This document shows, piece after piece, positions 7,696-24,198 of a stretch of 56,728 nt of DNA. Origin of the DNA: Clostridia bacterium. Its GTDB lineage: Bacteria; Bacillota; Clostridia; Oscillospirales; CAG-272. The notes beneath the pieces are model-generated. The model was given only the letters and a program-made list of their open reading frames with translations, was not told where the DNA came from and ran no database searches. The stretch is from positions 1 through 56,728 of the forward strand of contig CAAEBS010000146.1 in NCBI GenBank assembly GCA_900754175.1, in the 5' to 3' direction. The first letter of the stretch is position 1. Every line of letters starts with the position of its first letter. The position numbers and the translations under genes were made by a program.

Positions 7696-9462
7696 TTAAC
7701 TATTGGCAGGTCTTTTTCTTACGGAATACTTCTGCGCATACCGGCGGTATTTTTCGATGAAGTTGGGGTCCTCCTGCTTGATTCTTTTCAGTGCTTCATG
7801 GGCGTTCATGTTATTTTCGCTCGCATCTATGATACAGACTGCAATGTTGGAGCAATGGTCGCTGACCCGCTCAAAGTTTGTGAGAAGATCCGACCATATA
7901 AAGCCGGCTTCAACCGTACACTCCCCACCTTTCAGACGGACGATATGACTGTCTCTGAGGGTGGCTCTGAGGTCGTCCACCACCTGCTCCAGCGGCTCCA
8001 CGTCATAGGCAAGCGCCACGTTTTCCTCCACGAAAGCCCGCTCGGTCAGCGTCAGCGTTTCCTCCACTGCCCGGCAAAGGACGTTCAGCTCGGCTTTTGC
8101 AGAGCCGGAAAATTCAATTCCCTTTTCCCGCAGTTCCTCCGCCGACTCTATGACGTTTACAGCGTGGTCGGATATCCGCTCCAGATCCCCGATCGCTTTC
8201 AGCAGTTTGGAGACGGTTGCGCTGTCCCGGTCCGAAATCTGATATTGGCTCAGGCGGGCAAGATAGGTTCCGAGGACGTCTTCATAATGGTCGGTCTTTT
8301 CCTCGATATCCCGCACCTTTTGTGCAATCTCGGGCGTAAAACGGTCGATTGCCTGAATACTCAGCCGAAAGCTCCCGATCGCCTCTGTTGCCATTTTGGA
8401 AGTGAGACGGCTGCACTGGTCCAGCGCAATGCTCGGCGTAGCCAGGAGTCTTTCGTCCAGTTCCACCGGCTTTTCGGCGCTCTTTCCGTCGGGAACCACC
8501 TTATACGCCAGCTTTTCCAGCAGGGACGAGGAAGGCAGCAGCAGTACCGTACAAAGGACATTGAATGCCGAATGGCAGACCGCAATGCCAAGGTAGGACG
8601 CCGGTTGCGAAAGAATTGCGGGCTTCAGGACGGCAGACAGGATGCTGAACGCCGAAAGCCAGATGACTGTGCCGATCACATTAAAGGACAGGTGAACGAA
8701 CGCCGCACGCTTAGCGTTTTTATTAGTGCCGAAAGACGACAGCATGGCGGTCACGCAGGTACCGATATTCTGTCCCATGATGATCGGGATCGCCGCACTG
8801 TAAGAGATTGCCCCCGTCGCCGACAGCGCCTGAAGAATACCGACGGAAGCGGAACTTGACTGGATCACGCCGGTAACGACAGCGCCCACCAGGACGCCGA
8901 GAAGCGGATTCTTGAACGCCACAAACAGGTTCTGAAATTCCGGGACGTCCGCCAGCCCTGAGACGGCGCCGGACATGGCGTCCATACCGAACATCAGCGT
9001 GGCAAAGCCGAGGAGGATCGTGCCGATGTCCTTCTTTTTTGAGGACTTGGCAAACATCGTAAAGCCAATGCCGACAAGGGCAAGCACCGGGCTGAACGAG
9101 GAGGGCTTCAAAAGCTTCAGCACGAGGTTGTCGCTTGAAATACCGCCGAGGCTGAGAATCCACGCCGTCACGGTCGTTCCAATATTGGCGCCCATGATAA
9201 CGCCGATGGACTGCCGCAGGGTCATGACCTTGGAGTTGACAAAGCCAACGACCATGACGGTTGTGGCAGAGGAGCTCTGGATGACCGCCGTCACCCCCAT
9301 CCCTGTCAGAAAGCCCTTGATCTTACTGTTGGTCAGCTTGCCGAGAAGCGATTTCAGCCCGCTCCCCGCACACCGTTCCAGACCGTCGCCCATCACGTTC
9401 ATTCCGAACAGAAACAAGCACAAGCCGCCTATAAAGGCAAGCACGTTAAAAATATCAAACAT
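7696..9462 (-). CDS. Na/Pi cotransporter family protein with C-terminal PhoU-like domain
   Basis: 588 aa. N-terminus MFDIFNVLAFIGGLCLFLFGMNVMGDGLE with duplicated IQSSSAT/IQSSSAS motifs typical of NptA/YjbB-type transporters. The soluble helical C-terminal half is PhoU-like. Confidence 0.88.
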   Translation of the reverse strand: MFDIFNVLAFIGGLCLFLFGMNVMGDGLERCAGSGLKSLLGKLTNSKIKGFLTGMGVTAVIQSSSATTVMVVGFVNSKVMTLRQSIGVIMGANIGTTVTAWILSLGGISSDNLVLKLLKPSSFSPVLALVGIGFTMFAKSSKKKDIGTILLGFATLMFGMDAMSGAVSGLADVPEFQNLFVAFKNPLLGVLVGAVVTGVIQSSSASVGILQALSATGAISYSAAIPIIMGQNIGTCVTAMLSSFGTNKNAKRAAFVHLSFNVIGTVIWLSAFSILSAVLKPAILSQPASYLGIAVCHSAFNVLCTVLLLPSSSLLEKLAYKVVPDGKSAEKPVELDERLLATPSIALDQCSRLTSKMATEAIGSFRLSIQAIDRFTPEIAQKVRDIEEKTDHYEDVLGTYLARLSQYQISDRDSATVSKLLKAIGDLERISDHAVNVIESAEELREKGIEFSGSAKAELNVLCRAVEETLTLTERAFVEENVALAYDVEPLEQVVDDLRATLRDSHIVRLKGGECTVEAGFIWSDLLTNFERVSDHCSNIAVCIIDASENNMNAHEALKRIKQEDPNFIEKYRRYAQKYSVRKRPANS

Positions 9463-9526
9463 ATCGCATTCCCTTTTCCGTATTTTTCCGCCGTTCCAAA
9501 TCTTCCGTTCTTATAGTATCCCACCT

Positions 9527-9745
9527 TTATTCCCGTTTTACGACGTCGGACGGTATTTTCATTTCCCGCCCGACCAGCTCGTCAAGGGTGACCTGCAATA
9601 TATCCGCAATGTGACAGAGCGTCCGGATATCCGGCTGGCGCTCTCCCCGCTCGTAGCGGGAATAAACGACCTTGGAGCAACCGATGCGATCTGCCATTTC
9701 TCTCTGCGTTAGAGACCGTGAAAGGCGAAGCTCCCGCAATTTCAT
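9527..9745 (-). CDS. XRE-family helix-turn-helix transcriptional regulator
   Basis: 72 aa, LRELRLSRSLTQREMADRIGCSKVVYSRYERGERQPDIRTLCHIADILQVTLDELVG. Its ATG overlaps the stop of the upstream RNase III-like gene (ATGA at 9742..9745). Confidence 0.85.
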   Translation of the reverse strand: MKLRELRLSRSLTQREMADRIGCSKVVYSRYERGERQPDIRTLCHIADILQVTLDELVGREMKIPSDVVKRE

Positions 9746-10737
9746 TCCTTCCCCTCCCAGCCGAGAATTTCACAAAGCATTTCATACGCAACTTTTTTCT
9801 TTCCCTGCTTTTTGGAAGCATCACGCCGGGTGCAGACGTGCTCCGCACCGGTCACACGGCACCCGCATATCCAGAACGGATTTCCGTTTTCGTCGTGCTC
9901 CTCGGAAAAATCATATTCCGGCTCGCCGATGCACCCTTTCTGCCAAAGCTCCTGCAACTGGTTGATCGCCCGGTCCGGGTCGGGTGCGCCCACCTCGTCG
10001 TATGCCGTAACCAGCATACCGTTCTGCCCCAGAAATTCATAGGCGCTTTTGGCGGCAGACATTCTGGCTCTGCTCTTGGAACCGCCCTCTCCCGCAAAGC
10101 TTTTCTGCATACAGGGGAGCGTCAGCACGCAATGACAAAAGCTTCCCTTGCTTTGCCCGAATCCGTATTCCGGCAGTTTCTCGCTCTTTTTCTGGCACCA
10201 CTGCTGAATCAGAGCCACGTAGTTCTGATCGTTTTCAAATCCGTTGTCCAGATAATACCCCGGGTCCAGCAGACAGTCCACCACGCTCTCAAGCTGTAAA
10301 AAATCCCAGCCGGAATCCACCGCAACCGCCCCGAGAATCGCCTCAAACAGATCCTCTTTTACCGGCGCTTCGTTTTCCACGTGATTCTGCCGGTCGCCCT
10401 TGCCCATGATCAGATATTCCTGTAAGCCGAATATCTCCACTCTTCCGGACAGCATTTTCCGCTCCACCAGCTTCTGCTTCAGCGCCGTCAGCCTGCCCTC
10501 CGCCTGCTTCGACGAGTACTCACCCACCCCGTTCAGCCGCCCGTAAAAAGCGTCCAGCGTCTTTACCGCAATAACGTCCAGGACCTTGTCCCCGATGAAT
10601 TCCAGAACCTCGTTGTTGCCGCACTCCGGATTCTCCTGCGAATACGATCGCCGGGTAAATGCCTGCTGCAACAGCTTTTTGTTCTGAAAAGTATAGCCGA
10701 TCTGGGTCTCGATGTGACGGATAATTTCTGCGTTCAT
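9742..10737 (-). CDS. RNase III family protein with two C-terminal dsRNA-binding domains
   Basis: RNase III signature NEVLEFIGDKVL and EDLFEAILGAVAVDSG. Two dsRBD-like segments end in GGSKSRARMSAAKSAYEFL and ASKKQGKKKVAYEMLCEIL. I prefer ATG 10737 (MNAEIIRHIE...) over the ORF-track start 10887 because AAGGAGG lies 10 nt upstream. Confidence 0.8.
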   Translation of the reverse strand: MNAEIIRHIETQIGYTFQNKKLLQQAFTRRSYSQENPECGNNEVLEFIGDKVLDVIAVKTLDAFYGRLNGVGEYSSKQAEGRLTALKQKLVERKMLSGRVEIFGLQEYLIMGKGDRQNHVENEAPVKEDLFEAILGAVAVDSGWDFLQLESVVDCLLDPGYYLDNGFENDQNYVALIQQWCQKKSEKLPEYGFGQSKGSFCHCVLTLPCMQKSFAGEGGSKSRARMSAAKSAYEFLGQNGMLVTAYDEVGAPDPDRAINQLQELWQKGCIGEPEYDFSEEHDENGNPFWICGCRVTGAEHVCTRRDASKKQGKKKVAYEMLCEILGWEGKE

Positions 10738-10747
10738 ATAAAAACAG

Positions 10748-10772
10748 CCTCCTTGTTTTTCGTACAAGAAGG
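10748..10772 (-). promoter_or_regulatory. Hairpin sequestering the RBS of the RNase III-like gene
   Basis: mRNA sense CCUUCUUGU-acgaaaa-ACAAGGAGG: 9 bp including one G-U. The whole AAGGAGG RBS lies in the 3' arm. Confidence 0.35.
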
Positions 10773-10950
10773 CATAGATATAGCCCGACAAAGCCCACTT
10801 CACCCGTGCGCTCCCATCGGGCACCAGAAAATAAACGGAGTTACATAAATCACTTTCATTTGATAAGACCCACTTGCATAGATCCAATCAAATATTTTTG
10901 TTTTATGTCAAGCCATTTAGATCCTCGTTCCCGACCTTCCTGACACTATC

Positions 10951-10979
10951 ATTATATCAGATAAAATTTACTTTGTCAA
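10951..10979 (-). promoter_or_regulatory. Consensus sigma-A-type promoter of the RNase III-like/XRE operon
   Basis: Minus strand: TTGACA (10979..10974), exactly 17 nt, TATAAT (10956..10951). Leader of roughly 200 nt to ATG 10737. Confidence 0.6.
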
Positions 10980-10981
10980 GT

Positions 10982-11014
10982 GGTTTCAGGTAACCGTTTT
11001 GGTTACCTGAAACC
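10982..11014. repeat. Perfect 14-bp inverted repeat (candidate operator, or recQ 3' hairpin)
   Basis: ggtttcaggtaacc (10982..10995), gtttt, ggttacctgaaacc (11001..11014). Ends 2 nt upstream of the -35 above and lies 55 nt downstream of the recQ stop. No U-tract follows on the minus strand. Confidence 0.6.
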
Positions 11015-11068
11015 GGGAAATATGGTGTACTCCGTATCTGAAATTTCAATCGCAGACGCCCTGAAGGC

Positions 11069-12898
11069 TCACACCTTTTTCGACGTCTTTTCGTACTCCC
11101 GTATCCGTGCCGTAAAAATTCCGCCGTAAAGATCTCTTTTTGCCTGCCCGACGCCGTTGACCTCAGTGAATTCCGCAAGAGTCGTGGGGCGCTTGACGCA
11201 CATATCCCTTAAAGTGGCGTCGGAAAAGACGATGTACGCCGGCACGTCCTGCTCCCTGGCAAGCTGAAGACGGAGCCGTTTCAGCGCTTCAAACAGCGAA
11301 TAGTCAAAATCCCCCACAACCTCCCGGGGCTTTTTCTCTTCTGCGGCAGGCTTTGGTTTGATCGCTTTCATCAACAGCCGAATATCGCCGTGCAACACCT
11401 CCTGCGCCTGCGGCGTTACGTTCAGGACCGGATATTCATCCCCCCTGGTGCAAAGATACCCCTTTTCCTCCAGATAATCCATCCTGTCCCGGATCTCCCT
11501 CTCGGACATGGATTTTAAGATTCCGTACGTTGACAGGTTCTGCAAGCCAAACGACTGCAAGCGTGCGTTCTGACTTCCACGCAGGATATCGCAGATCATC
11601 TTTTTTCCGAAGTGCTGTCCGCTCCGGATTACGCAGGAAAGGATTTTCTGTGCGTCCTCCGTAATATCCACCGTTTCCGCATTAGACAGACAGTTGGAAC
11701 AGTTTCCGCATACCGATGCGCTTTTCTCGCCGAAGTACCGCAAAATGGAGTGCCGCAGGCAGTCGCCGGTTGTGCAGTAAAAAGTCATCTGCTTCAGACG
11801 TTCCATATCCCGCTCCCGCAGAATCTGCCGTTCTTCCTCCGGCAGATCGGAGACTTCGTCGGCTTTTGCAATCAGAAAACGGTCGGTTACCACGTCCTGC
11901 GGGCTGTAAAGCAAAATACAATCCGCCTTTTCTCCGTCCCGTCCGGCACGCCCGGCTTCCTGATAATAGCTTTCAATATCTTTCGGCATATTGTAGTGAA
12001 TGACAAACGCCACGTCTGATTTGTCGATCCCCATGCCGAACGCATTGGTCGCCACGATGATATCCACCCTGCCGTAAATAAAATCTTCCTGATTCTTTCT
12101 GCGCTCGTCGTCCGGAAGCCCCGCATGATACTGCGTGGCGGATATCCCGTTCCGGCAAAGAAGATCGCAGACCTCCTCCACCTTTTTCCTGGTAGAGGCA
12201 TAAACGATGCCCGAACTGCCGGAATGTTCCCGGATCCACGACAACAGCCTTTCCGGCTTTGACGTCGGCTTTTCCACACCGAAGAAAAGATTGGGACGGT
12301 CAAATCCGGTTGTGATGCAAAACGGTTCCCGCAATGCCAGAAGCGTTTCAATGTCCGCCCTGACCTTGTCCGTGGCGGTTGCGGTAAATGCGCCCACCGT
12401 AGGTCTTTCCGGCAATCCGGAAATGAACTCGGCTATTTTCAGATAGGACGGTCTGAAATTCTGTCCCCACTGCGACACGCAGTGCGCCTCGTCCACGATC
12501 ACCAGAGAAACCGGAACCTGACGGCAGACGTTCAGGAAGTCCGACGACGACAGCCGCTCCGGCGCCACGTACACCAGCTGATACCTGTGATCCCGGATGT
12601 TCTGAATCACCTTGGCGTACTGCCCCGCCGCCAACGTGCTGTTGACGTATGCCGCACCGACGCCGGATTGCGTAAGCCCCTCCACCTGATCCTTCATCAG
12701 CGATATCAGAGGGGAGATCACGATCGTGATGCCCTCTTTCATCAGCGCCGGCACCTGATAGCACAGCGATTTTCCCGCTCCGGTCGGCATCACGCACAAA
12801 ACGTCCTGCCCGGACAGAATGGTGTCAATGACTGTCTCCTGCCCCTCCCGGAACGTACTGTGCCCGAAATATCTTTTCAATACTTCCCGCTTGGTCAA
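11069..12898 (-). CDS. recQ: ATP-dependent DNA helicase RecQ (with HRDC domain)
   Basis: 609 aa. VLKRYFGHSTFREGQETVI, MPTGAGKSLCYQVPAL, VIVDEAHCVSQWGQNFRPSY, QEAGRAGRDG, Zn-binding CGNCSNC, and a C-terminal HRDC-like region. TTG start at 12898 with GGAGG 7 nt upstream, 2 nt after the upstream stop. Confidence 0.93.
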   Translation of the reverse strand: MTKREVLKRYFGHSTFREGQETVIDTILSGQDVLCVMPTGAGKSLCYQVPALMKEGITIVISPLISLMKDQVEGLTQSGVGAAYVNSTLAAGQYAKVIQNIRDHRYQLVYVAPERLSSSDFLNVCRQVPVSLVIVDEAHCVSQWGQNFRPSYLKIAEFISGLPERPTVGAFTATATDKVRADIETLLALREPFCITTGFDRPNLFFGVEKPTSKPERLLSWIREHSGSSGIVYASTRKKVEEVCDLLCRNGISATQYHAGLPDDERRKNQEDFIYGRVDIIVATNAFGMGIDKSDVAFVIHYNMPKDIESYYQEAGRAGRDGEKADCILLYSPQDVVTDRFLIAKADEVSDLPEEERQILRERDMERLKQMTFYCTTGDCLRHSILRYFGEKSASVCGNCSNCLSNAETVDITEDAQKILSCVIRSGQHFGKKMICDILRGSQNARLQSFGLQNLSTYGILKSMSEREIRDRMDYLEEKGYLCTRGDEYPVLNVTPQAQEVLHGDIRLLMKAIKPKPAAEEKKPREVVGDFDYSLFEALKRLRLQLAREQDVPAYIVFSDATLRDMCVKRPTTLAEFTEVNGVGQAKRDLYGGIFTARIREYEKTSKKV

Positions 12899-12900
12899 TT

Positions 12901-15900
12901 TTAAACCTCCGTATCCGTCACGTCAGCCTTCCGACGATCGATGACAAAACTCTTTTTCTCTTTCCTTTCAAAATGCAGATCCGGCAGGAGCACCGCCGTC
13001 TCCCTGGTATCCTCTTCCTTTTTCCAAGCAACGACAAACCGGACGTTGGCACTGACCGGACAGTATCCTTTCTTTTCAAGCTCCTCCAATCGTGCCATAC
13101 ACGCCTTTGACAGTTTGGCTACTTTTACAGGGTACCCTCCAAGCGTAGCAAACAAAAATCCCTGTCCGAAAGAAAGAGCCGCTCCGCTATGCAACTTTAA
13201 GATCTGTTCCTTTTTTCCCTTGAAAAAGTCCAGTACAACGTCTCTGTGGGTCAACTGAAGCGACAGCTCCTGTGGCTCCGGGTATTGCGTTGTATCGACG
13301 AACCGCCCGATTCCGGCTCCTTCATATGCATCGAAAATCCCGGTGTTGCAGTGAACATACAAATTGTCCTTTGCCCTCGTCATACCGACATAAAGCTTTC
13401 GCCGCCCGGCATCGTCACAAAGCTGTTCCCGGTTCAGAAGCAACCACACGCTGTCAAACTCTCTGCCCTTGGATTTATGTATCGTGGAAACGAATACGGT
13501 TTCCCGGTCATCGGTGTAAAAGTCCTCAAACTGAGACTCTTTTATGAACTCCTCAAGATCGCTCCGGTATTTGCTGTAAGAATTGACTTTTTCAAAATCC
13601 GAAATCATGTTTCGGACGTTCTCAAGGCAGGCACTGTCGGAATACGTCTCTTCCAAAGCCTGCTTTGCCTGATTCCACAGGTCGTTGCTGATAACCGGTG
13701 TTCTGAGCCTTTTATCAATCGTATGCAAAAAGAAGCGAACCTCTGCCAGATTATACAGCCGGAATCCGTCGAGCGACTGGATCAGTTTTGCACGAATACC
13801 GTTTTTGAGAAGCAAGCCGAGCACACATAGCGCATCTTCATTGGTACCGGTCAGGACACACGCCCTTCCGCCACGATAGTTTTCCATGATCTGCCGCACG
13901 ATCGGTTCTTCCATGTTATTGCAGGTGTGTCGTACGATCTGCACAATTCCGTTTTCTCTCTGCACCGCCTCAATCGGATTCTGCTTCATGCGATTTCCAA
14001 TCCCCTCGGCGAAACGGTTGGCAAGCGCTACAATATTTGCCTTACTGCGATAATTTTCCACCAATTCATACCGGGTGGCACCGTAATCATGGATCAATTG
14101 TCGCATAAATGCGGAATCAGAACCACGGAATTCATAAATATTCTGGTCATCGTCTCCCACAGCAATCACACGCATATCGTCATTGTTACGTATCAGCGCC
14201 TGAATCAGAGAAAATTCATCTGCGTCCATATCCTGTGCCTCGTCAATTACAAGAACGCTTTTGGTAATCCTCCCCTGCTCCACCTCGCCGTTTGCAATCA
14301 TCTGCGCCGCATCGTGCACCACGTTTTCCACGCCGTCCAGACTGCCGATCTTACCCAGCAGATCAAAACAATAAGAATGAAAGGTCTTGATCTCCACAAA
14401 ATTTGCCGCATTTCCGATCAAAGCCATCAGACGCTTTTTGAATTCGGTTGCCGCCGCCCGTGAAAAAGTCACCATAAGAAGCTGTTCGTGTTTGACATCT
14501 TCCAGAAGGAGCAAAGACGCCAGTTTATGAACAAGCACTCTTGTCTTTCCGCTTCCGGGACCAGCCGCAACCACGATATACCGGGAATCCGCATCGTTTA
14601 TAATCTGCGACTGCATATCCGAAAGCTCACCGAATAACTGATGATATTTTTCCGGTGTAATGTTCCGGTTGATATCCTTTGCCCTCTCCCCTTTGAAATA
14701 CTTAGCGATAAAACGTTTGAAATCCATTCCGAAATAATCCCGGACAAACTGAAGAGCGGCGTCATAATCCCGGACCATCAGGTTTGCATATTCGCCGACG
14801 ATATGGATCTGCTGGATCTTCTGCTTATAATACTCGCTGAGCGTCCGGTAATCCTCCGCTTTATATCGGATCTTGTTATCAAGAATTAACCGTTTTACCT
14901 CCATGCCGTTGTAAAGAACCAGGAAACCGCCCTCAAGCTTCATCGAGCCGATTTTGGAAAGATACAGGAGAGCGTCCTCCACGTCTGTAAGCATCGTTCC
15001 GGAAACGTCAAAATCAGCCCCCATGTTGGGTTCATTGATGTATTTCTGCCAAAGCCCGACCAGAGAAAACTGTACCGGCGCACTTTCCTGCCCACCCTCG
15101 ACAGTCTGTGCCATTTCATAGAGTTCTTTTACCAGGAACCGACAAACATCAACTCTGCGCCGGAATTTTTCAAGCAGTCTCGGAATTTCCATTGTAGGCA
15201 CCGCCAAGGTATGCGGCGTCGGCTCGGACGTATCGTCATCCGGGTTCCTCTCCTTACTTCCTTTGGAAATGTACCCTTTGATCGTCAGATAGTACAGAAG
15301 CGTGCGGAGATTTTTAACCGAGGAAGCCGTGATTCCGGCGTTTTGCGCCGCCTCATTGAGCTCTTTCAGAGACAGGTCTGACCCCTGCTCCGATATATGG
15401 CTCAGCAGAAATTCTTCCAGCTTTATAAAGCGGTTCAGAATCTGCGCCGACCGGTTTTCGGTATCAGATCTCATAATATAAGCCGACATATCCATTGAGT
15501 CAGCAAGCAAACCATCCTGCCGCATCAGATTGACAGACGTCACAACGTCTGCTTTCGGGATTCCCAGAATATCCGCAAGATAGTCCACCCGGGACTCCGC
15601 ATCATCATTCCCCGCCTCCGCAATACTCCGACTGGAGATCAGGGACTTGATGATCCGCTTTGCGTTTTCCTTTTGCTTGTCGTCGAAAAGCGGCGACTTT
15701 TCGATTCTGAACGAAGCCTCCGCCATGTTTTTTGCAAGGATACTGGTAGCATAGACGTGCGGAACATTTTTCCCACGTTTTACATATCCGGCATTTTCAA
15801 GCGCCGCAACTGCTGTCTTGACACGGGTCTCGATCTCCTTTATCGAATCGTCCCATCCCGCCTGCCTGGCGATCTCCAAAGCAGAACAGCATACCCACGG

Positions 15901-17790
15901 CTTTTCCCTCGTCAACTCCTTCAGCGCCTTCCAGACCTGTTGGATCTCGCTGATACTGAGTTTGGTCTGATTCAGAAGCATAAAGTGCTTATCCAGGTCA
16001 TTGTCGTTGAACAACACGTAGCATTCCGCCTGCAAACTGGGATCCCGACCGGCTCTGCCCGCCTCCTGCACGTAATTTTCCAGGGAGTCGGAAATGTCGT
16101 AGTGAACAACCAGGCGGACGTCCTTTTTGTCCACTCCCATACCAAACGCAGAGGTAGCCACAATGATTTTTACCCGGTTCTGAATAAAAGCTTCCTGATT
16201 TGCAATTTTTTCGTTCGGATCCATCTTTCCGTTGAAAGGCTTTGCGGGGAAACCGTCGCTTGTCAGCTTTTCCGCAATCTGGATCGTTCTTTTCGTGAGG
16301 GAAACGTACACGATAGTCGGGCAGTTCTTTTGCTCGATAAGCGCACGGAGCGCATTGTATTTTTCGTCATCGGTTTCTTTGTACAAAACCGTATAATGGA
16401 GGTTTTCACGATCCGCCGTGGAAGTAAACAGCTCCAGTGCAACACCAAGCTTTACCCGGAAATAATCGCAGATATCGGTAATGACCTTCTGTTTTGCCGT
16501 AGCGGTAAAGCAGGACACCGGAACCGGCGTTTTCATTTGTTTTTTCTTCTGGTACTCTTTTATAAAATCGCCAATATACAGGTAATCCACACGGAAATCC
16601 TGCCCCCATGCGGAAAAGCAGTGCGCTTCATCGATGACAAAACGCACCACGTTGCGGGAAAGAAGCAGTTTCTCAATGGTCCGGGAACGCAATTGTTCCG
16701 GAGAAATGTACAAAAGAGTTGCCAGACCGCTCTCCACCCGTTCCAGCGCTTCCGACCGCTCGATCGGGCTGAGCAGACCGTTGACCGTAACGGCGTCCAC
16801 CAGTCCTTTTTCATTCAGATTGTCAACCTGATCCTTCATCAGGGACTGAAGCGGCGAGATGACGACTGTCAGCCCATGAGCGCACTCCCCTGCCATAAGA
16901 GCCGGCAACTGAAAGGTAATGGATTTTCCGCCTCCCGTCGGAAAGACCGCCAACAAGGATTTTCCGTCAACTGCTGCCTGCGCCGCACGCTCCTGCAACG
17001 GTTCTCCGTTATAGGTACGGAAATTGTCGTACCCGAAAAACTGTTTCAGCTTTTTATGAATATCAAGTCTGTCTCTGCAATAGGCACAACCGTCTTTGCA
17101 GGGGGTATGACAAAGATATCGGACGATATTATCAATTCTCGGAAAGTTTTTAGTCAGCCACGGCGGCGTTACGGAATGGTAATCCGAAGCGCTGATCAGA
17201 GCGAGCGCATACGCAAGCTCCACAGGATAATGCCGCACCATCAGCTCCACATCCGAATTTTTGCAGATCCTCCCTTTATATTCCTTGCGGATCCATCCGG
17301 CAACGTCAGAGCGTTCCGGCGTAACGCCAACGTAATCAAAAAAGCCTTTGAATTCCTCACGATCGTACAACAGGCAACTATATATCTGTTTTCTTCTGTA
17401 AGAAAGCTCGTGAAAAGTATTGACCTCATCTGCAAACAACTGCATTGCCTTTTCGGCGTCGTTCAAAGGATTGTTAAGCTGATCGGACAAAATCTTGTCG
17501 TCCTTCAAAAGGCGATGATACGGTCGGCACGGAAACAAAAGCGGAGACAGATAAAGCGTGTCAACCGGCTTGGCACGCAACGGCTTATCAAAATGCGGCG
17601 TCAGATACAAAAGGTCATGATGAACGATATTGTGCCCACAGATAAAGTCCGCATCCGAGACAAAATCATAAAATTTTGGCACAGAAAGCGCATGAAAAGA
17701 AGACCGGTCCTCCTTTATCGCCCCAAGATCCTTTATTTTTTTGTCCTCCACACCGATTTCACTATCAATGAACACGATAGACTTTGCCAT
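12901..17790 (-). CDS. Fusion protein: DEDD 3'-5' exonuclease + RecQ-type SF2 helicase + UvrD-type SF1 helicase
   Basis: ORF track gives 12901..17850. I prefer ATG 17790 (MAKSIVFIDSEIG) with AAAGGAG 7 nt upstream. Exonuclease motifs: FIDSEIG, GHNIVHHD. RecQ motifs: FPTGGGKS, VIDEAHCFSAWGQDFR, QEAGRAGRD. UvrD motifs: AAGPGSGKT, VIDEAQDM, VGDDDQNIYEFRG, ENYRS, TIHKSKGREF, VGMTRAKDNLY. Confidence 0.9.
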   Translation of the reverse strand: MAKSIVFIDSEIGVEDKKIKDLGAIKEDRSSFHALSVPKFYDFVSDADFICGHNIVHHDLLYLTPHFDKPLRAKPVDTLYLSPLLFPCRPYHRLLKDDKILSDQLNNPLNDAEKAMQLFADEVNTFHELSYRRKQIYSCLLYDREEFKGFFDYVGVTPERSDVAGWIRKEYKGRICKNSDVELMVRHYPVELAYALALISASDYHSVTPPWLTKNFPRIDNIVRYLCHTPCKDGCAYCRDRLDIHKKLKQFFGYDNFRTYNGEPLQERAAQAAVDGKSLLAVFPTGGGKSITFQLPALMAGECAHGLTVVISPLQSLMKDQVDNLNEKGLVDAVTVNGLLSPIERSEALERVESGLATLLYISPEQLRSRTIEKLLLSRNVVRFVIDEAHCFSAWGQDFRVDYLYIGDFIKEYQKKKQMKTPVPVSCFTATAKQKVITDICDYFRVKLGVALELFTSTADRENLHYTVLYKETDDEKYNALRALIEQKNCPTIVYVSLTKRTIQIAEKLTSDGFPAKPFNGKMDPNEKIANQEAFIQNRVKIIVATSAFGMGVDKKDVRLVVHYDISDSLENYVQEAGRAGRDPSLQAECYVLFNDNDLDKHFMLLNQTKLSISEIQQVWKALKELTREKPWVCCSALEIARQAGWDDSIKEIETRVKTAVAALENAGYVKRGKNVPHVYATSILAKNMAEASFRIEKSPLFDDKQKENAKRIIKSLISSRSIAEAGNDDAESRVDYLADILGIPKADVVTSVNLMRQDGLLADSMDMSAYIMRSDTENRSAQILNRFIKLEEFLLSHISEQGSDLSLKELNEAAQNAGITASSVKNLRTLLYYLTIKGYISKGSKERNPDDDTSEPTPHTLAVPTMEIPRLLEKFRRRVDVCRFLVKELYEMAQTVEGGQESAPVQFSLVGLWQKYINEPNMGADFDVSGTMLTDVEDALLYLSKIGSMKLEGGFLVLYNGMEVKRLILDNKIRYKAEDYRTLSEYYKQKIQQIHIVGEYANLMVRDYDAALQFVRDYFGMDFKRFIAKYFKGERAKDINRNITPEKYHQLFGELSDMQSQIINDADSRYIVVAAGPGSGKTRVLVHKLASLLLLEDVKHEQLLMVTFSRAAATEFKKRLMALIGNAANFVEIKTFHSYCFDLLGKIGSLDGVENVVHDAAQMIANGEVEQGRITKSVLVIDEAQDMDADEFSLIQALIRNNDDMRVIAVGDDDQNIYEFRGSDSAFMRQLIHDYGATRYELVENYRSKANIVALANRFAEGIGNRMKQNPIEAVQRENGIVQIVRHTCNNMEEPIVRQIMENYRGGRACVLTGTNEDALCVLGLLLKNGIRAKLIQSLDGFRLYNLAEVRFFLHTIDKRLRTPVISNDLWNQAKQALEETYSDSACLENVRNMISDFEKVNSYSKYRSDLEEFIKESQFEDFYTDDRETVFVSTIHKSKGREFDSVWLLLNREQLCDDAGRRKLYVGMTRAKDNLYVHCNTGIFDAYEGAGIGRFVDTTQYPEPQELSLQLTHRDVVLDFFKGKKEQILKLHSGAALSFGQGFLFATLGGYPVKVAKLSKACMARLEELEKKGYCPVSANVRFVVAWKKEEDTRETAVLLPDLHFERKEKKSFVIDRRKADVTDTEV

Positions 17791-17824
17791 GAGACACTCC
17801 TTTTGTTCAGGTAATATGGCGCTT

Positions 17825-18625
17825 TTAAAATTCAACTCTGTTAATTTCATCTGATATTTCAGTTAAGCTTTCATAACTTCCCTTTTCGTTTAAAAAAGCC
17901 TGAACTGTTTTTTTGCCCTGAAGATTAACACTCTCGGTATACATATTGTGTTTTCGGGTATAAAGCCTGCAATTATTAAAATTTACTTCCGCATTGATCA
18001 ACGGCAAAACAACCGCAAAGTGCCTTTTCAGCAAATCCATTTGCCCTTCCGTTATTCTGGGAAAATAAGTAGACACTACATTCCAGATCCCATGACTTAC
18101 AAGTAAAAAATAATCAGTATAATTCGTCACAATAAAAACATTATTCGCTCCTGTTTTGACCGCTAAGTTCAAGGAGTACAAACTATTCCTTCTATTAAAG
18201 ACCTCGGATTTCGGATATCTATGTAATCGATTTTCACGGCATGAATAAAAGTCAAAGCACTGTACATTCCCCGAAAGATCGACGGTGGGGATGATAATAC
18301 TATTGCGCATCTTATCGCAATAAGTTCCCGAGTTGGACTTAAAAACCAAGTGATACTTTTCGGCTTCTTCCTGTTGTTGAGAGGTAGAAAAAACTTTCCT
18401 CGTCAAATAAGGGTCACCATCATGAAAACCTAAACCAAGCTTTGTTATTTCCCGAAAGGAAAGATTATACTTATTCTTTAAAAATGAAAAAGCTGCCTGC
18501 GACTTCGGATTCATCTTCCATTGGGAATAATACAATTTTGCCGCCGTGCGCATCATATTCTCTCGTGATTTTAAAATTGTACTCTTTTTTTCCTCCAATG
18601 TATAGGTATCCCCTTCACCACTCAT
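17825..18625 (-). CDS. DnaG-core-like protein lacking Zn finger and catalytic TOPRIM residues (pseudo-primase)
   Basis: 266 aa. By eye it aligns to the DnaG RNAP/TOPRIM core. LGLGFHD matches IGFAP. MRNSIIIPTVDLSGNVQCF matches FRxRxMFPIxDxxGxVIGFGGR. RYPKSEVFNRRNSLYSL matches KYLNSPETxxFxKGxxLYGL. VFIVTNYTDYFLL matches VVEGYMDVVAL. The TOPRIM Glu is Thr and DGDxAG is replaced by INAEVN. RBS AAGGTGGA. Confidence 0.6.
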   Translation of the reverse strand: MSGEGDTYTLEEKKSTILKSRENMMRTAAKLYYSQWKMNPKSQAAFSFLKNKYNLSFREITKLGLGFHDGDPYLTRKVFSTSQQQEEAEKYHLVFKSNSGTYCDKMRNSIIIPTVDLSGNVQCFDFYSCRENRLHRYPKSEVFNRRNSLYSLNLAVKTGANNVFIVTNYTDYFLLVSHGIWNVVSTYFPRITEGQMDLLKRHFAVVLPLINAEVNFNNCRLYTRKHNMYTESVNLQGKKTVQAFLNEKGSYESLTEISDEINRVEF

Positions 18626-18662
18626 ATGCCGTTTTCCACCTTATGTAAAATCTTATACTTAC

Positions 18663-18691
18663 AGTATATCATAAAATCTGACTATTTTCAA
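18663..18691 (-). promoter_or_regulatory. Promoter of the pseudo-primase/helicase operon
   Basis: Minus strand: TTGAAA (18691..18686), 17 nt, TATACT (18668..18663), preceded by TGa (extended -10). About 30 nt upstream of the RBS. Confidence 0.5.
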
Positions 18692-18752
18692 TCCTTTTTT
18701 TACCAAAAGTGTGAAATTCCGCTTGGAACAAAATATTTTTCATTTTCTTTTT

Positions 18753-18790
18753 TAACCCGGACAGCCGTTGTCCGGGTTAGCTTTTAAAAT
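18753..18790 (+). promoter_or_regulatory. Operator/promoter module, copy 1 (upstream of the seven-gene operon)
   Basis: 11-bp perfect palindrome taacccggaca / tgtccgggtta containing GGACAGCCGTTGTCC, then 11 nt, then TAAAAT (18785..18790). ATG 18817 lies 27 nt further on. Same core and spacing as the copies at 26243 and 32976. Confidence 0.5.
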
Positions 18791-18816
18791 GGTGGTGGAA
18801 TGGAGGTGAGCGGAAG

Positions 18817-19182
18817 ATGGGAACTGCCGAAAGGCGAGCGGAGATCATGAAAATACTGTGCCGGCGCAGACGGGAAAGCATCCGGAATCTGGCGGCTGAA
18901 TTCGGCGTTTCCTCACGGACGATACAGCGTGACGTTGATATTCTGAGCCGCTCCGAACCGATCTTTACCATGCCGGGCAGGTACGGCGGCGTCTGCGTGG
19001 TGGAGGGCTACTCCATGGACCGGATGTACATGACCACGGCGGAAGTTGCGGTACTGCAAAAGCTGTATGCGGCGGCTGAAAGCTCTGCCGGGTTACTTAC
19101 GCTCCCCGAAAAAGATCTGCTCGGTTCCCTGATTGCGCAATACTCCAAGCCAACAAGAAAAAATGAAAGGAATTTATCATGA
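18817..19182 (+). CDS. Small HTH_11/DeoR-like (YafY N-terminal type) transcriptional regulator
   Basis: 121 aa, MGTAERRAEIMKILCRRRRESIRNLAAEFGVSSRTIQRDVDILS. Its stop overlaps the next ATG (ATGA at 19179..19182). Paralogue at 25182..25523. Confidence 0.8.
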   Translation: MGTAERRAEIMKILCRRRRESIRNLAAEFGVSSRTIQRDVDILSRSEPIFTMPGRYGGVCVVEGYSMDRMYMTTAEVAVLQKLYAAAESSAGLLTLPEKDLLGSLIAQYSKPTRKNERNLS

Positions 19183-20264
19183 ACGAAAACGAAAAACAGC
19201 TTTTCAAAGCACTTTGCAAATTCAAAGAACCCACATTCGACGATTCCCTGCTCGCCTACGCAACTCCGTGCGTGCTGGGGCATCTGTTCTTCAACCGGAT
19301 GCAGGGCGTTGCCTACGGCACGCTGAAGCGGCGGGGAGCGCTCGGGCGTGTAAACCGGGAATTCCGGAACTCTCTCGGTGCGGCGTTTGAGCAGAACCGG
19401 CAGAAAAACGAAAGCTTTCTGCAATGTGTCGGAACGCTCTCGGAGCTTCTTTCCGACGGCGGCGTCCGGGCGGCTATGCTGAAAGGCGCATTCCTGTGTG
19501 CGCACTATCCGGAGGGCTACCGGACCTCCAACGACATCGACCTGCTGGTGCTTCCCGAGGACGTGACGGCGGTCGGCACGCTGCTTTACGATGCGGGATT
19601 CCGCCAGGGGAGCGTCCGGGAGGGCAAATTCATCCCCGCCACCCGTGTCCAGATCATCACCTCCAAAATGATGCGGGGCGAAACCGTCCCGTACATCCGG
19701 GAAGTCGGTCTGCCTCAGATGAAATATCTTGAGGTGGATATCAATTTCTCTCTGGACTACAAAAACGGCGACGACCGTATTCTGCACGACCTTCTGGCAC
19801 GCACCACGACACGGGAGGAGGACGGGCTTCCCATTCCGATGCCGGAATCCTGCGACTTTTTCCTCCACCTTTGCGCCCACCTCTACAAGGAGGCGACCAC
19901 GCTTCCCTGGATCGAAATGCGCCGGGACATGACGCTGTACAAATACGCCGACCTCTATCTTCTGCTCCACGAGCTGGACGACACCGGCATTGCCGAGATC
20001 TTTGACCGTGCCCGGGCGCTTGGACTTGACAAAATCTGCGCTTATGCGATTCTGGAAACGATAGAGTTGTTCGATATGAAAAACGATACTGCCTGCCAAC
20101 TGGCAAACCAAGCGCTGGCAGACGACCCGGATTTCCGCCTGCGGGTCACGTCCACCAAGGACAAAAAGATACTGATCTACCGGACCGCAAGCGCTACCGA
20201 GCGCTTTTTCATGGACGACCGGACAAAGGATCTCAGGGAGGTGAAAAGCGATGAAAAGGCTTAA
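19179..20264 (+). CDS. Nucleotidyltransferase family protein (NTP_transf_5 / PF14907-like)
   Basis: 361 aa. AAMLKGAFLCAHYPEGYRTSNDIDLLVLPEDV matches the LKG...R..DIDLLV hallmark I associate with PF14907. RBS GAAAGGAA. Confidence 0.72.
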   Translation: MNENEKQLFKALCKFKEPTFDDSLLAYATPCVLGHLFFNRMQGVAYGTLKRRGALGRVNREFRNSLGAAFEQNRQKNESFLQCVGTLSELLSDGGVRAAMLKGAFLCAHYPEGYRTSNDIDLLVLPEDVTAVGTLLYDAGFRQGSVREGKFIPATRVQIITSKMMRGETVPYIREVGLPQMKYLEVDINFSLDYKNGDDRILHDLLARTTTREEDGLPIPMPESCDFFLHLCAHLYKEATTLPWIEMRRDMTLYKYADLYLLLHELDDTGIAEIFDRARALGLDKICAYAILETIELFDMKNDTACQLANQALADDPDFRLRVTSTKDKKILIYRTASATERFFMDDRTKDLREVKSDEKA

Positions 20265-20886
20265 TATGCGGGAAAACCGGACCCCCGGGCGGCTGATCAC
20301 CTTTTGCGGACTGGATGGTTGCGGCAAGACGACCATGATCCGGCGGCTGTTTGACGAGCTGGAGAGCACGCACAGCATTTTCCTGACCAAGCAGCCGACC
20401 AACGCCGTGCGGAAATCCGAGATCTTCCGGAACTACATGGACTGCCCCGATCACAACGCCTTCGACTACCGCAGTCTTTCCCTGCTTGCCGCAAGCGACC
20501 GACTGCAACACGTGAACAAGGTGATTGAGCCGGCGATGCAACACGGCGGCATCGTACTCAGCGACCGGTATTTTTACTCCTGCCTTGCCAATCTGCGGGC
20601 AAGAGGCTTTGAAAAGGACGACTGGATCTACGAAATCGCAGGCTCGGTCATCAAGCCGGATCTTGCCTTTTTCTTTGACGTGCCGGTGGAGGTGGCGGTG
20701 GACCGGGTCCGCAGTCGCCCGGAGGAAAAGAACCGGTACATCGACATTGACCTGCAATACCGGCTCCGCAAGGAGTATGTGGACATCTGCTTTGCAAACG
20801 GCGGCATCCTCATCTCCACCATGGAGCCGGAGGACGACTGTTACGCCCTGGTGAAAAAAGCGGTAAAGGAGGTACTGAAAAAATGA
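20251..20886 (+). CDS. Thymidylate-kinase-like P-loop nucleotide kinase
   Basis: 211 aa. LITFCGLDGCGKTT (Tmk P-loop G-x-DG-x-GKT/S-T), FLTKQPT, SDRYFYSCLA (Tmk DRY motif), and an Arg-rich LID-like VDRVRSRPEEKNRY. RBS GGGAGGTG. Overlaps the previous gene by 14 nt. Confidence 0.78.
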   Translation: MKRLNMRENRTPGRLITFCGLDGCGKTTMIRRLFDELESTHSIFLTKQPTNAVRKSEIFRNYMDCPDHNAFDYRSLSLLAASDRLQHVNKVIEPAMQHGGIVLSDRYFYSCLANLRARGFEKDDWIYEIAGSVIKPDLAFFFDVPVEVAVDRVRSRPEEKNRYIDIDLQYRLRKEYVDICFANGGILISTMEPEDDCYALVKKAVKEVLKK

Positions 20887-21149
20887 CGGTATTAGAGAAA
20901 ATCATTGCGATCCTGACAGAGCTGAGCGACGAAAAGGTCATCACGCCGGAAAGCCGGCTTACCGAAGATCTGGCGCTGGACAGCATCCGGATGGTAACGC
21001 TTCTGATCGAGCTGGAGGAAAGCTTCGGCATCGTCCTTGCCGAGTCGGACATGAACCCGTTCGACCTGATCACGGTAAGCGACGTTATAACGCTTGTGAA
21101 AAAATATGAAAAGGAGCCGGAAAGCAACCATGAAAAAGAACAGAATTGA
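20883..21149 (+). CDS. Acyl/peptidyl carrier protein
   Basis: 88 aa. LTEDLALDSIRMVTLLIELEESFG contains the D-S-(L/I) phosphopantetheine attachment motif. ATGA overlap with the upstream stop. RBS AAGGAGG. Confidence 0.85.
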   Translation: MTVLEKIIAILTELSDEKVITPESRLTEDLALDSIRMVTLLIELEESFGIVLAESDMNPFDLITVSDVITLVKKYEKEPESNHEKEQN

Positions 21150-22134
21150 GCTTCCCCTCATCGAACCGGTGTACAGCACCTATCACAATCAGGGAGCGGG
21201 CAGTGCGATCCTCGTCCACAACCCCTCCATCCGGAACTGGTATCTGAATCAGGTATTGATCCTCACCTGCAACCGGAAATTTCTGAAAGGCTTTACCACG
21301 CCCGAGGTCAGCATTGTGGAGGGCACCTGGAATACCAATCCTTATCTGGAAAAGAAGTGGTTCGGATTGCAGTTTCTCCGGGGGCACGTCCACTACGTGA
21401 TCCGGAATCTGCTGGAGGCGGGCTATTACGTCACCTTCAACGGAATCGACGACTACTACGTAGAGGGAAAAAGCTGGTACCGACAGCGGCATTTTCCCCA
21501 CGACGGCTGTATCTGCGGATACGACCCGGAGGACGACACCTACTGCATTTACGCCTACGATCAGAACTGGATCTACCGGAAATTCAAAACGCCGAAAAAA
21601 TGCTGGGAGGCGGGGCGGAAAGCCATGTTCAAGGTGGGGCGCTACGGCAACATCTGCGGTCTGAAGCCCAAGGGCGACAAAGTCGTTTTTTCGCCGGAAA
21701 CCGCCCGGAAAAAGCTTGCCGAATACCTGAACTCCGATTTTGAAAAATATCCGGAGGACGGTGAGGGACCGGTGTACGGAATCGTGGTACACGATTACAT
21801 TGCGAAATACGTCGGAAAGCTTTACGACGGTTCGATTCCCTACGAAAAAATGGATCGCCGGGTGTTCCGGCTGATCTGGGAGCACAAAAAGGTCATGCTG
21901 GAGCGGATCCGCCGGATTGAGGAGGCGCTCTCCCTCGGCGGCGACGTCGGCGACCGGTACGAGGCAGTGGTAAAGGACGCCGATATGCTCCGGATGCTTT
22001 ACGCCTCTCACCACATGAAACGCCGGGACTCGGTCCTGCCGGTCATTCAGAAAAAACTGCTCTCGCTCAAAGCGTGCGAGCAGGCGCTTCTGACCGAGCT
22101 TCTGGCAAACTCGGAGGGAGGTGGCGTGGAATGA
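21130..22134 (+). CDS. Hypothetical protein (possible BtrH/C39-like papain-fold acyl-carrier-dependent transferase)
   Basis: 334 aa from ATG 21130 (AAAGGAG 14 nt upstream; alternative ATG at 21106). No family recognised with confidence. RQRHFPHDGCICGYDPEDDTYCIYAYD resembles the H-x-GYD-x-D segment of BtrH_N/C39-like folds. Its stop overlaps the next ATG. Confidence 0.6.
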   Translation: MKKNRIELPLIEPVYSTYHNQGAGSAILVHNPSIRNWYLNQVLILTCNRKFLKGFTTPEVSIVEGTWNTNPYLEKKWFGLQFLRGHVHYVIRNLLEAGYYVTFNGIDDYYVEGKSWYRQRHFPHDGCICGYDPEDDTYCIYAYDQNWIYRKFKTPKKCWEAGRKAMFKVGRYGNICGLKPKGDKVVFSPETARKKLAEYLNSDFEKYPEDGEGPVYGIVVHDYIAKYVGKLYDGSIPYEKMDRRVFRLIWEHKKVMLERIRRIEEALSLGGDVGDRYEAVVKDADMLRMLYASHHMKRRDSVLPVIQKKLLSLKACEQALLTELLANSEGGGVE

Positions 22135-23510
22135 AGCTCTGGAACTTTATCCGGGAAGCAATGATGTCGCACCCGACGCAGAAGATCCGGGAGGAGCGTG
22201 CGGAAATGAGCTTTGAAGAAGTAGCGGTCTTTGCCCGGGAGTTTTCGGAAAGGCTCCGGGGATTCCGTTGCTGTGCCATTCTCTGCTCCTCCGAAATGGC
22301 GGCGGCAATGGCGCTCCTCTCCTGCTTTGCGGCAGAGGTAACGGCACTGCCCCTCTCCATGCGGTACGGACAAGCCCACTGCCGCAAGATTCTTGACGCC
22401 GTAAGCCCCGACGCTATCATCAGCGACAACGGCGGAGAGCTGGCGGTATACCGGCTGGATCCCGGCAGCTATTCTCCACCCGATGTACATCCGGCGCTCA
22501 TCATGTGCACCTCCGGCACCACCGGAAAGCCCAAGGGCGCCATGCTCAGTGAAAGCAATATCCTTGCCAACGTGACCGATATTGCCGGATATTTTGCGCT
22601 CGGGGAAAGCGATACCATTCTGATCGCCCGCCCGCTCTACCACTGTGCGGTGCTGACCGGCGAATTTCTGACCGCCCTGGTCCGGGGCGCCGGGATCCGC
22701 TTTTACTCGGGGAACTTCAACCCACCGAAAATGCCGGAGCTGATCCGAAACTATGAGATCACGGCTTTCTGCGGAACGCCTACCCTGCTGTCGATGATGG
22801 CAAGATTCAGCCGTGGCACGCCGCCCCCGACCCTGAAGCATATCGTGATCAGCGGCGAATGTATGGGCGCCGACACCGGCATTGCCATTGCCGACGCCTT
22901 TCCGCAAAGCCGGATCTACCACGTTTACGGGCTGACCGAGGCTTGCCCACGGGTCAGCTATCTGCCTCCCGAAGCCTTCCGGCAATACCCCGATTGCGTC
23001 GGGATTCCCCTGCGCTCGGTCTCGGTTCGCCTGCTTACCCCGGACGGCGCTCTCTGCCAGCCCGGCGAGGAAGGCGTCCTGTGGGTCAGGGGGGACAACG
23101 TGATGCTCGGCTACTACCGGGATCCCGGAAGGACCGCCGAAATTCTGCGGGACGGCTGGCTCTGCACCGGCGACCTTGCGGTGAAGAACGACGCCGGCTA
23201 TCTGAAGATCAAGGGGCGCAACGACGATCTCATCATCAAATCGGGCATGAACGTCTACCCCGCCGAAATCGAGGCGGCAATGAAACAGGACGCAAGAGTC
23301 CGGGAAGTGCTGGCATACAAAGTCGAAGGCCGCTTCGGCGTGCAGATCGGCATGAAGCTGGCAGGCGACTTTTCCTCGGTGGAAGAGGTAAAAAAGCTCT
23401 GCGCACAGCTCCTGCCCCCCTTTCAGATCCCGGCGGTCATCACGCTGGTGGACGAACTGCCGAAAAACGGCTCCGGCAAAATCATACGGAGGGAACGCCA
23501 TGACGCTTGA
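22131..23510 (+). CDS. Adenylate-forming enzyme (AMP-dependent synthetase/ligase, DltA-sized)
   Basis: 459 aa from ATG 22131 (RBS GGAGGGAGG). IMCTSGTTGKPKGAMLS, YGLTEA, GDLAVKNDAGYLKIKGRNDDLIIKSGMNVYPAEIE, LPKNGSGKI. Confidence 0.9.
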   Translation: MKLWNFIREAMMSHPTQKIREERAEMSFEEVAVFAREFSERLRGFRCCAILCSSEMAAAMALLSCFAAEVTALPLSMRYGQAHCRKILDAVSPDAIISDNGGELAVYRLDPGSYSPPDVHPALIMCTSGTTGKPKGAMLSESNILANVTDIAGYFALGESDTILIARPLYHCAVLTGEFLTALVRGAGIRFYSGNFNPPKMPELIRNYEITAFCGTPTLLSMMARFSRGTPPPTLKHIVISGECMGADTGIAIADAFPQSRIYHVYGLTEACPRVSYLPPEAFRQYPDCVGIPLRSVSVRLLTPDGALCQPGEEGVLWVRGDNVMLGYYRDPGRTAEILRDGWLCTGDLAVKNDAGYLKIKGRNDDLIIKSGMNVYPAEIEAAMKQDARVREVLAYKVEGRFGVQIGMKLAGDFSSVEEVKKLCAQLLPPFQIPAVITLVDELPKNGSGKIIRRERHDA

Positions 23511-24060: not shown

Positions 24061-24169
24061 CCCTGCCCTGCCGCATCATGCCAACGTCCTGACCTGTCCG
24101 TGTTGCCAGACAATTTACGGTATTTTCCAAAAGCAAATTGTAAATAAAACATGAAGTTTCAGAAAGCCC

Positions 24170-24198
24170 TTGACAAGCCGTGATTTTTGCATTATAAT
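24170..24198 (+). promoter_or_regulatory. Consensus sigma-A-type promoter of the LexA-like gene
   Basis: TTGACA (24170..24175), exactly 17 nt, TATAAT (24193..24198). ATG 24237 is preceded by AAGGAG. Confidence 0.6.

Follow-up and report, generated by a model that had tools for sequence, protein, structure and literature searches.

A probable mosaic operon around a RecQ-UvrD fusion protein with an exonuclease-like domain in a Clostridia bacterium

We analyzed three adjacent genes on the minus strand (positions 11069-18691) of a 56,728-nucleotide stretch of DNA from a Clostridia bacterium (contig CAAEBS010000146.1 of assembly GCA_900754175.1); the whole stretch is called the window here and all coordinates refer to it. 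The genes encode a degenerate primase-like protein (the pseudo-primase), a protein of 1629 amino acids (the fusion), which unites an exonuclease-like domain with a RecQ-type and a UvrD-type helicase motor, and a RecQ helicase. The reading that we prefer, and consider probable, is that this is a mosaic operon around an autonomous dual-motor helicase-exonuclease fusion. The functional unit would be the fusion alone, with its DEDD-fold exonuclease-like domain, cysteine cluster, superfamily 2 (SF2) motor, winged-helix-like linker and superfamily 1 (SF1) motor, while the 5' region of the pseudo-primase would supply the promoter to the operon. For the fusion we lean slightly towards an accessory role in genome maintenance or anti-recombination, which overlaps with that of RecQ, over a dedicated role in immunity.

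An initial annotation of this DNA had proposed that the three genes form one functional module. The distribution of the genes contradicts this proposal. The surroundings of the fusion were surveyed in 80 loci from species-representative genomes, with clustering of the flanking open reading frames (ORFs), and those of RecQ in 80 metagenomic loci with its closest relatives (at most 61% identity). No pseudo-primase was found within 10 kb of the fusion in the genome loci (0/80), and the clustered flanking ORFs revealed no conserved neighbor of the fusion. Neither the fusion nor the pseudo-primase was found at the loci of the RecQ relatives (0/80). Outside the window the only other occurrence of the trio is in a contig of the same species (L081), which is about 99% identical.

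The three genes also differ in composition and in their history between the two strains. The operon had been described as richer in AT than its neighbors; this is true for the pseudo-primase (36.6% GC) and the fusion (48.7%), but not for recQ, which has the same GC content as the neighboring genes (54.4%). The GC content at third codon positions (GC3) climbs stepwise in the same order from 38% over 57% to 68%, and the value of recQ is like that of the surrounding genes. When the window is compared with the sister strain L081 (11069-18653), the synonymous divergence is 0.033 in recQ and 0.0028 in the fusion, which is a difference of about 12-fold (Fisher p = 5.6e-6). The pseudo-primase has three differences between the strains, and all three are nonsynonymous. 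From the graded composition and the unequal synonymous divergence we conclude that the operon is a lineage-specific mosaic; it is not a conserved three-part system. Since the synonymous divergence differs between recQ and the fusion, recQ looks resident in the host, and the two strains share a more recent history in the upstream block of 5.7 kb, as would be expected if this block was acquired or replaced by transfer. A search for direct or inverted repeats on either side of the fusion found none; the sole repeat was the DNA of the shared RecQ motif. In the sister strain a gene for a NERD-domain protein (L081 7601-8503) is inserted between recQ and the RNase III-like gene that lies downstream of it.

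The arrangement reported in the initial annotation, in which three packed minus-strand genes with gaps of 34 and 2 nucleotides follow a TTGAAA-N17-TATACT promoter, agrees with our ORF and promoter checks. The ORFs extend over 18625-17825 (266 amino acids), 17790-12901 (1629 amino acids) and 12898-11069 (609 amino acids, TTG start); the 34-nucleotide gap separates pseudo-primase and fusion and the 2-nucleotide gap fusion and recQ. The features of the operon outside the fusion gene are as follows.

18663-18691, minus strand: promoter of the sigma-70 type, TTGAAA-N17-TATACT, with a TG-extended -10 element; 10 of 12 consensus positions match
17825-18625, minus strand: AT-rich gene for the pseudo-primase, 266 amino acids, with the N-terminal subdomain of the DnaG catalytic core and a degenerate TOPRIM domain
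11069-12898, minus strand: gene for a canonical RecQ, 609 amino acids, with a TTG start 2 nucleotides past the stop of the fusion; its composition matches the host
10981-11026, minus strand: 3' boundary of the unit, with a hairpin at about 11016-10981; the homology to the sister strain L081 breaks at about 11026

We prefer the ATG at 17790 as the start of the fusion because it is preceded by a ribosome-binding site (AAAGGAG), because homologues begin with M-x-KSIVFIDSE and because the same product of 1629 amino acids was independently called in two other datasets (P0001 and L081). An ORF of 1649 amino acids starting at 17850 was rejected as a mechanical extension of the same frame, the start at 17790 being better supported. 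No good promoter other than that at 18691-18663 precedes the three genes. A further strong one, with a perfect TTGACA-17-TATAAT (12/12), follows only at 10979-10951, just past recQ and after the hairpin. From the spacing of the genes, the upstream promoter and the occurrence of the next strong promoter only after recQ it is therefore likely that the three genes are co-transcribed as one unit. The ribosome-binding site of recQ (GGAGG) sits within the last codons of the fusion gene, so that in this species the fusion would be translationally coupled to the downstream recQ. An Rfam scan of positions 9000-19500 gave no match.

The architecture of the fusion protein can be divided into five parts.

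17056-17790, minus strand: residues 1-245, DnaQ/DEDD-fold exonuclease-like domain with a helical extension and the cysteine cluster, assigned from AlphaFold2/Foldseek and conserved residues
15961-17055, minus strand: residues 246-610, SF2 core of the RecQ family with the motifs PTGGGKS, DEAH and QEAGRAGRD, assigned from Pfam DEAD and Helicase_C and from TIGR00614
14671-15960, minus strand: residues 611-1040, conserved and mostly helical linker with probable tandem winged-helix-like modules, predicted local distance difference test (pLDDT) 69
13321-14670, minus strand: residues 1041-1490, SF1 core of the UvrD/PcrA type with the motifs GPGSGKT, DEAQD and VGMTRAK, assigned from Pfam UvrD-helicase and UvrD_C
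12901-13320, minus strand: residues 1491-1629 and the stop codon, poorly conserved C-terminal tail, which holds the ribosome-binding site of recQ

The fold of the N-terminal domain is seen by structure prediction only. The 260 N-terminal residues of five diverse members gave no Pfam match, RNase_T included, even at E-values up to 5, and there was no sequence match in the PDB. The AlphaFold2 model of the domain has a pLDDT of 87.8, and residues 1-130 adopt a DnaQ RNase H-like fold according to AlphaFold2/Foldseek. The best structural match is the exonuclease-bearing DinG of S. aureus (8zef/9ii8; Foldseek probability 1.0, E = 1e-3); further Foldseek matches, whose E-values are borderline (1e-3 and above), are the exonuclease domains of PolB and phi29, EXD2 and RNase AS. 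The acidic residues D9, E11, D59 and D111, which lie where the motifs of such exonucleases are expected, are kept in 66-69 of the 71 family members. The Hx4D position of the ExoIII motif is occupied by a conserved Asn or Ser (N106) in the motif NNPLxD; Y91 and H92 are invariant, but they are located elsewhere. Thus, what the initial annotation called a fusion of a DEDD exonuclease with RecQ and UvrD in 1629 amino acids stands with respect to the domain layout, the predicted fold and the acidic residues, while exonuclease activity of the N-terminal domain is plausible. Between this domain and the RecQ core are four invariant cysteines (C176 and the Cx3Cx2C arrangement of C231, C235 and C238; positions 17077-17265 of the window). 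Their conservation suggests a zinc or iron-sulfur site.

The SF2 core passes the model of the RecQ family at subfamily level (TIGR00614; 278.7 bits, cut-off 219.8), and the SF1 core matches UvrD-helicase and UvrD_C of Pfam with E-values of 2e-33 and 8e-25. Both motors keep Walker A, Walker B and motif VI unchanged in all 71 family members. At the level of equivalogs the fusion is outside the known groups: it scored 320.9 bits with the RecQ model TIGR01389 (cut-off 640.2) and was far below all cut-offs of the UvrD, PcrA and Rep models. More generally, it does not qualify as a canonical RecQ, as UvrD/PcrA/Rep, DpdF, GajB or PsyrT, with all of which it shares generic cores only; where these groups have curated cut-offs, its scores are well below them. 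Pfam detected no RecQ_Zn_bind, RQC or HRDC domain after the SF2 core. The middle region (residues 600-1055) was predicted by AlphaFold2 with a pLDDT of 69; in Foldseek it showed a weak resemblance to winged-helix folds, but none of the matches was significant. According to this model the linker probably contains tandem winged-helix-like modules, and it is a probable DNA-binding region.

The family to which the fusion belongs is large. The search gave more than 8000 hits, of which the best 120 database clusters all have about 1600 amino acids and at least 68% identity. The 80 genome loci, in which the fusion is 43-83% identical, come from Bacillota, Bacteroidota, several lineages of Proteobacteria, Lentisphaerae and Cloacimonadota, hence from at least five phyla. 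Full-length copies are present on 9 plasmids or megaplasmids; in Aliarcobacter, Rhizobium, Allochromatium and Nostoc, plasmids or megaplasmids carry more distant relatives of full length (28-34% identity). No full-length fusion was found in phage records or in IMG/VR contigs. Neither the copy from a Bacteroidaceae bin (78% identity to that in the window) nor that from Eubacterium sp. CAG:180 (82%) has flanks homologous to those in the window. An identical fusion protein occurs at two chromosomal sites (L083/L084) that have no more than a segment of 6.7 kb in common, with short repeats of 67 and 195 nucleotides nearby. Fusions with 95-97% identity differ in the slot immediately upstream: RqlH and RqlI are present in L011 and missing in L010, and the slot is occupied by RecQ in L053 and by two other genes in L012. 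Judged by these comparisons the fusion looks like a widespread, horizontally mobile and stand-alone accessory gene family. The databases name it only "RecQ family helicase". A literature search for a RecQ-UvrD fusion, a bacterial WRN-like protein and RecQ paralogues of Bacteroides found no description of the fusion or of the trio, and no characterized pathway that uses the trio was found either, in line with the initial annotation.

Most neighbors of the fusion are housekeeping or miscellaneous genes. RecQ-type helicases are a recurrent presence beside it. In 7 related Bacteroidales loci the gene located 1-29 nucleotides upstream, on the same strand, encodes a canonical RecQ that includes RQC and HRDC. 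In a Salinivirgaceae genome and a Desulfosporosinus genome, which represent two phyla (L011 and L032), the pair RqlH and RqlI lies directly upstream; RqlH is a RecQ-like core with a phosphoribosyltransferase domain, and RqlI/PsyrA is its DprA-like partner (PADLOC E = 2.8e-109). With just 30-33% identity between them, the two RqlHI pairs do not derive from a single recent cassette. The corresponding PsyrTA system has been reported to defend against phages (10.1101/2022.05.11.491447). An upstream ORF of 682 amino acids, seen in 9 loci, was considered as a split piece of the fusion and rejected, since it is a separate gene for a canonical RecQ or for RqlH.

Among the other immediate neighbors of the fusion are AbiEi (2 loci), mad2 (3 loci), RhuM and an HNH endonuclease. 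The 113 immediate neighbors of the fusion matched 128 PADLOC families and the same number of control neighbors of RecQ matched 22, a contrast that is inflated by redundant helicase and methylase models and in which about 21 of 25 listed families come from six RecQ neighbors. This result is suggestive only and does not amount to a clean enrichment test. PADLOC has no full-length model for the fusion; its matches to Dpd, Gabija, PsyrTA, Shango and BREX helicases cover only the generic RecQ and UvrD cores, and the DpdF model scored 200.9 bits (cut-off 550). No complete known defense system was detected by PADLOC in the window, and no partner gene of the GajA, PsyrA or Dpd type. The resemblance to defense modules that the initial annotation had pointed out is thus carried in part by the neighbors of the fusion in two distant genomes and by a few other defense genes, but it extends neither to a full-length model nor to a system in the window.

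A comparison with known proteins places the fusion between several groups. Like WRN, it is a single polypeptide in which a DEDD-fold exonuclease domain precedes an SF2 core of the RecQ family, and this core matches the structures of WRN, BLM, RECQL5 and E. coli RecQ. However, it is bacterial, lacks RQC and HRDC after the core and contains in addition a UvrD-type SF1 motor; furthermore, its ExoIII motif is NNPLxD instead of the Y/H type, and there is no homology of the exonuclease domains at the sequence level. With DinG of the S. aureus type, which gave the best structural match, it shares a DnaQ-like exonuclease domain N-terminal to a helicase in a bacterial protein. The helicase of DinG is XPD-like, though, and DinG has no second motor; the identity is about 15%, and the TM-score is low since the models differ in size. 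AddAB, AdnAB and RecBCD also combine two helicase-type motors with a nuclease for processive processing of DNA ends, and the models of AddA and RecB matched the UvrD-type motor of the fusion weakly, with all equivalog scores far below the cut-offs. These enzymes are heteromeric, have only SF1 motors and use PD-(D/E)xK nucleases, whereas the fusion is a single chain with an SF2 motor, an SF1 motor and a DEDD-type fold. RqlH of PsyrTA resembles the fusion in that a RecQ-like core without HRDC is joined to an unrelated C-terminal module. The PsyrT model of PADLOC matched the core of the fusion with E = 1.3e-79, covering only positions 8-376 of its 689, but the fusion has no phosphoribosyltransferase domain and no DprA-like partner in the window. 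Finally, mycobacterial UvrD2 has been described as a UvrD motor with an HRDC domain (PMC3378886). It also mixes a UvrD-type SF1 motor with a RecQ-type module in one bacterial protein; it differs in having one motor and in borrowing only the HRDC domain, with no RecQ core and no exonuclease.

The pseudo-primase upstream of the fusion had been annotated as a degenerate DnaG-core protein, and this description was confirmed. Its only Pfam match is DNAG_N, and with the DnaG model TIGR01391 it scored 65.7 bits (cut-off 283.6). Its DNAG_N subdomain can be aligned with solved DnaG structures, as can the overall register of the RNA-polymerase core. In contrast to DnaG, the protein has no CHC2 zinc ribbon (no PF01807 match) and no domain for binding of the DnaB helicase; no remnant of a zinc ribbon was found upstream of it. 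An alignment with solved primases and real DnaG proteins showed that the TOPRIM Glu is replaced (VTNYTD compared to VEGYMD) and that the DxD metal site is gone, with PLINAE in place of DGDxAG. The sequence thus indicates that the first gene encodes a truncated, catalytically dead DnaG-like remnant. The family (relatives P0126-P0136 and P0139) is rare, with 13 representatives at E<1e-30 in an exhaustive search, and it is absent from IMG/VR. The dead TOPRIM domain is common to every aligned member. The other forms have either about 350 amino acids and a zinc ribbon or about 650 amino acids; in the latter, an extra N-terminal region of about 300 amino acids contains a helix-turn-helix (HTH) of the sigma-70 region 4 type. 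The copy in the window is the most reduced form. In another genome (L082 119-4690) a member of the family, 44% identical to the copy in the window, follows an HTH_17 gene and a gene for a UvrD/RQC helicase of 1099 amino acids. This helicase was rejected as a relative of the fusion because only generic SF1 motifs align. No description of an inactive primase of this kind was found in the literature.

The protein encoded by the third gene is a conventional RecQ with HRDC, as the initial annotation had it. It passes the equivalog model TIGR01389 with 750.9 bits (cut-off 640.2) over residues 4-602, and all five domains occur in order in Pfam, with the helicase core followed by the zinc-binding, RQC and HRDC domains. 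By these domain assignments it is a genuine RecQ and an ordinary repair helicase.

Downstream of recQ an unusually long RNase III-like protein with two motifs for binding of double-stranded RNA is encoded at 9742-10979 on the minus strand. Its gene lies behind the TTGACA-17-TATAAT promoter with a leader of about 200 nucleotides, in which the ribosome-binding site is overlapped by a hairpin (10773-10747); Rfam gave no match here. On the other side of the operon, a GC-rich operon runs divergently on the plus strand (18817-24854). It encodes an HTH_11/WYL-like regulator, an NTP_transf_5 protein, a thymidylate-kinase-like protein, an ORF of 342 amino acids, an AMP-binding enzyme and a CYTH protein, and it is followed by a gene for a LexA-like repressor. 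The thymidylate-kinase-like protein gave weak candidate matches in PADLOC to PDC-M51B and VakA. A protein of 2205 amino acids with RHS repeats, presumably a polymorphic toxin, is encoded at 524-7141 on the minus strand, about 4 kb from the operon.

The way in which the fusion could work can be derived from its well-studied relatives. RecQ and UvrD/PcrA motors both translocate in the 3'-to-5' direction on single-stranded DNA, and DnaQ-like domains take nucleotides off 3' ends. By analogy, the fusion would use 3' tails, gaps or branched DNA as entry sites, then unwind the DNA or strip proteins from it with the power of ATP, and the exonuclease-like domain would trim the 3' strand. In this way it would dismantle intermediates of recombination or replication, or else other DNA whose 3' ends are exposed. 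Such a mode of action would resemble that of WRN or of the DinG with an exonuclease domain, supplemented by a UvrD-type motor of the anti-recombinase kind. A role that overlaps with that of RecQ would then account for the repeated placement of the fusion beside RecQ-type genes; this placement suggests that the fusion and the RecQ-type helicases have overlapping or cooperating substrates. The enzymatic activities, the polarity, the substrate and the biological role of the fusion are what we infer from these analogies.

Several points weigh against this view of an autonomous maintenance enzyme in a mosaic operon. The mechanism is built on analogy, and to our knowledge no characterized protein combines two motors of nominally equal polarity in a single chain. 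With N106 in place of the His/Tyr of the ExoIII motif, the exonuclease-like domain may be atypical or may merely bind DNA. No SOS (Cheo) box was found near the promoter, the matches in the window being fewer than expected by chance, so that induction by DNA damage is unsupported by the promoter sequence. In this lineage the genes may truly cooperate in function, given how tightly they are coupled (gaps of 34 and 2 nucleotides, and a ribosome-binding site of recQ that is located within the fusion gene). Since metagenome bins make up many of the genomes, the taxonomic assignments on which the proposed transfer between phyla is based may contain binning errors. Moreover, a patchy, horizontally transferred distribution together with some defense neighbors fits immunity about as well as repair.

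This last point leads to the alternative that the fusion is by itself an anti-phage or anti-plasmid factor, which would load on replication intermediates or on foreign DNA that has free 3' ends, unwind it with two motors and degrade it; its RecQ-type and RqlHI neighbors would then reflect shared defense islands or cooperation. We regard this as possible but doubtful. It would explain the sporadic occurrence across phyla with signs of horizontal transfer, the copies on plasmids and the variable flanking slots, and it gains from PsyrA with RqlH directly upstream in two phyla, from AbiEi, mad2, the HNH endonuclease and RhuM as immediate neighbors, from the NERD gene in the sister strain and from the higher number of PADLOC families next to the fusion than next to RecQ. 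However, that number is inflated by redundant models, most neighbors are housekeeping genes, and PADLOC offers neither a full-length model for the fusion nor a complete system in the window. The conservation, with at least 50% identity over 1600 amino acids across phyla, is unusually high for a defense gene, and the fusion has no dedicated sensor or toxic effector domain. A dedicated machine of three components, in which the dead primase would serve as a subunit for DNA binding or loading, seems very improbable to us. The tight spacing and the probable single transcription unit speak for it, and the pseudo-primase in L082 adjoins a UvrD-type helicase gene as well; in addition, the whole pseudo-primase family has kept the DNAG_N fold while losing the catalytic residues, which suggests a retained non-catalytic function. 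Yet the trio is confined to one species and the fusion is present without the pseudo-primase in every other genome sampled. The helicase in L082 shares nothing with the fusion except generic SF1 motifs. The pseudo-primase of the window has itself lost the zinc ribbon that its relatives keep, differs between the strains at nonsynonymous positions only (3/3) and has a composition unlike that of the other two genes.

Taken soberly, the fusion is a variant among helicase-nuclease fusions that is already in the databases under a generic name, and the trio is an accident of one lineage. If the fusion serves ordinary accessory repair, the value of the analysis would lie mainly in better annotation. 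More far-reaching, and in our estimate unlikely, is the possibility that it is an unrecognized single-gene factor of immunity or against mobile DNA, which cooperates with RecQ or RqlH and for which the dead primase was co-opted as an adaptor for DNA recognition; two motors of the same polarity and an atypical DEDD domain would then strip and degrade invading or aberrant DNA. The analysis exposes a large, strongly conserved and apparently horizontally spreading family of proteins of about 1,600 residues whose predicted exonuclease domain resembles that of WRN or DinG. Among helicase-nucleases, a polypeptide with two motors of presumably equal polarity would be an unexplored design. The placement of the fusion beside RecQ and RqlHI provides a testable functional lead, which may point to back-up repair and anti-recombination or to defense.

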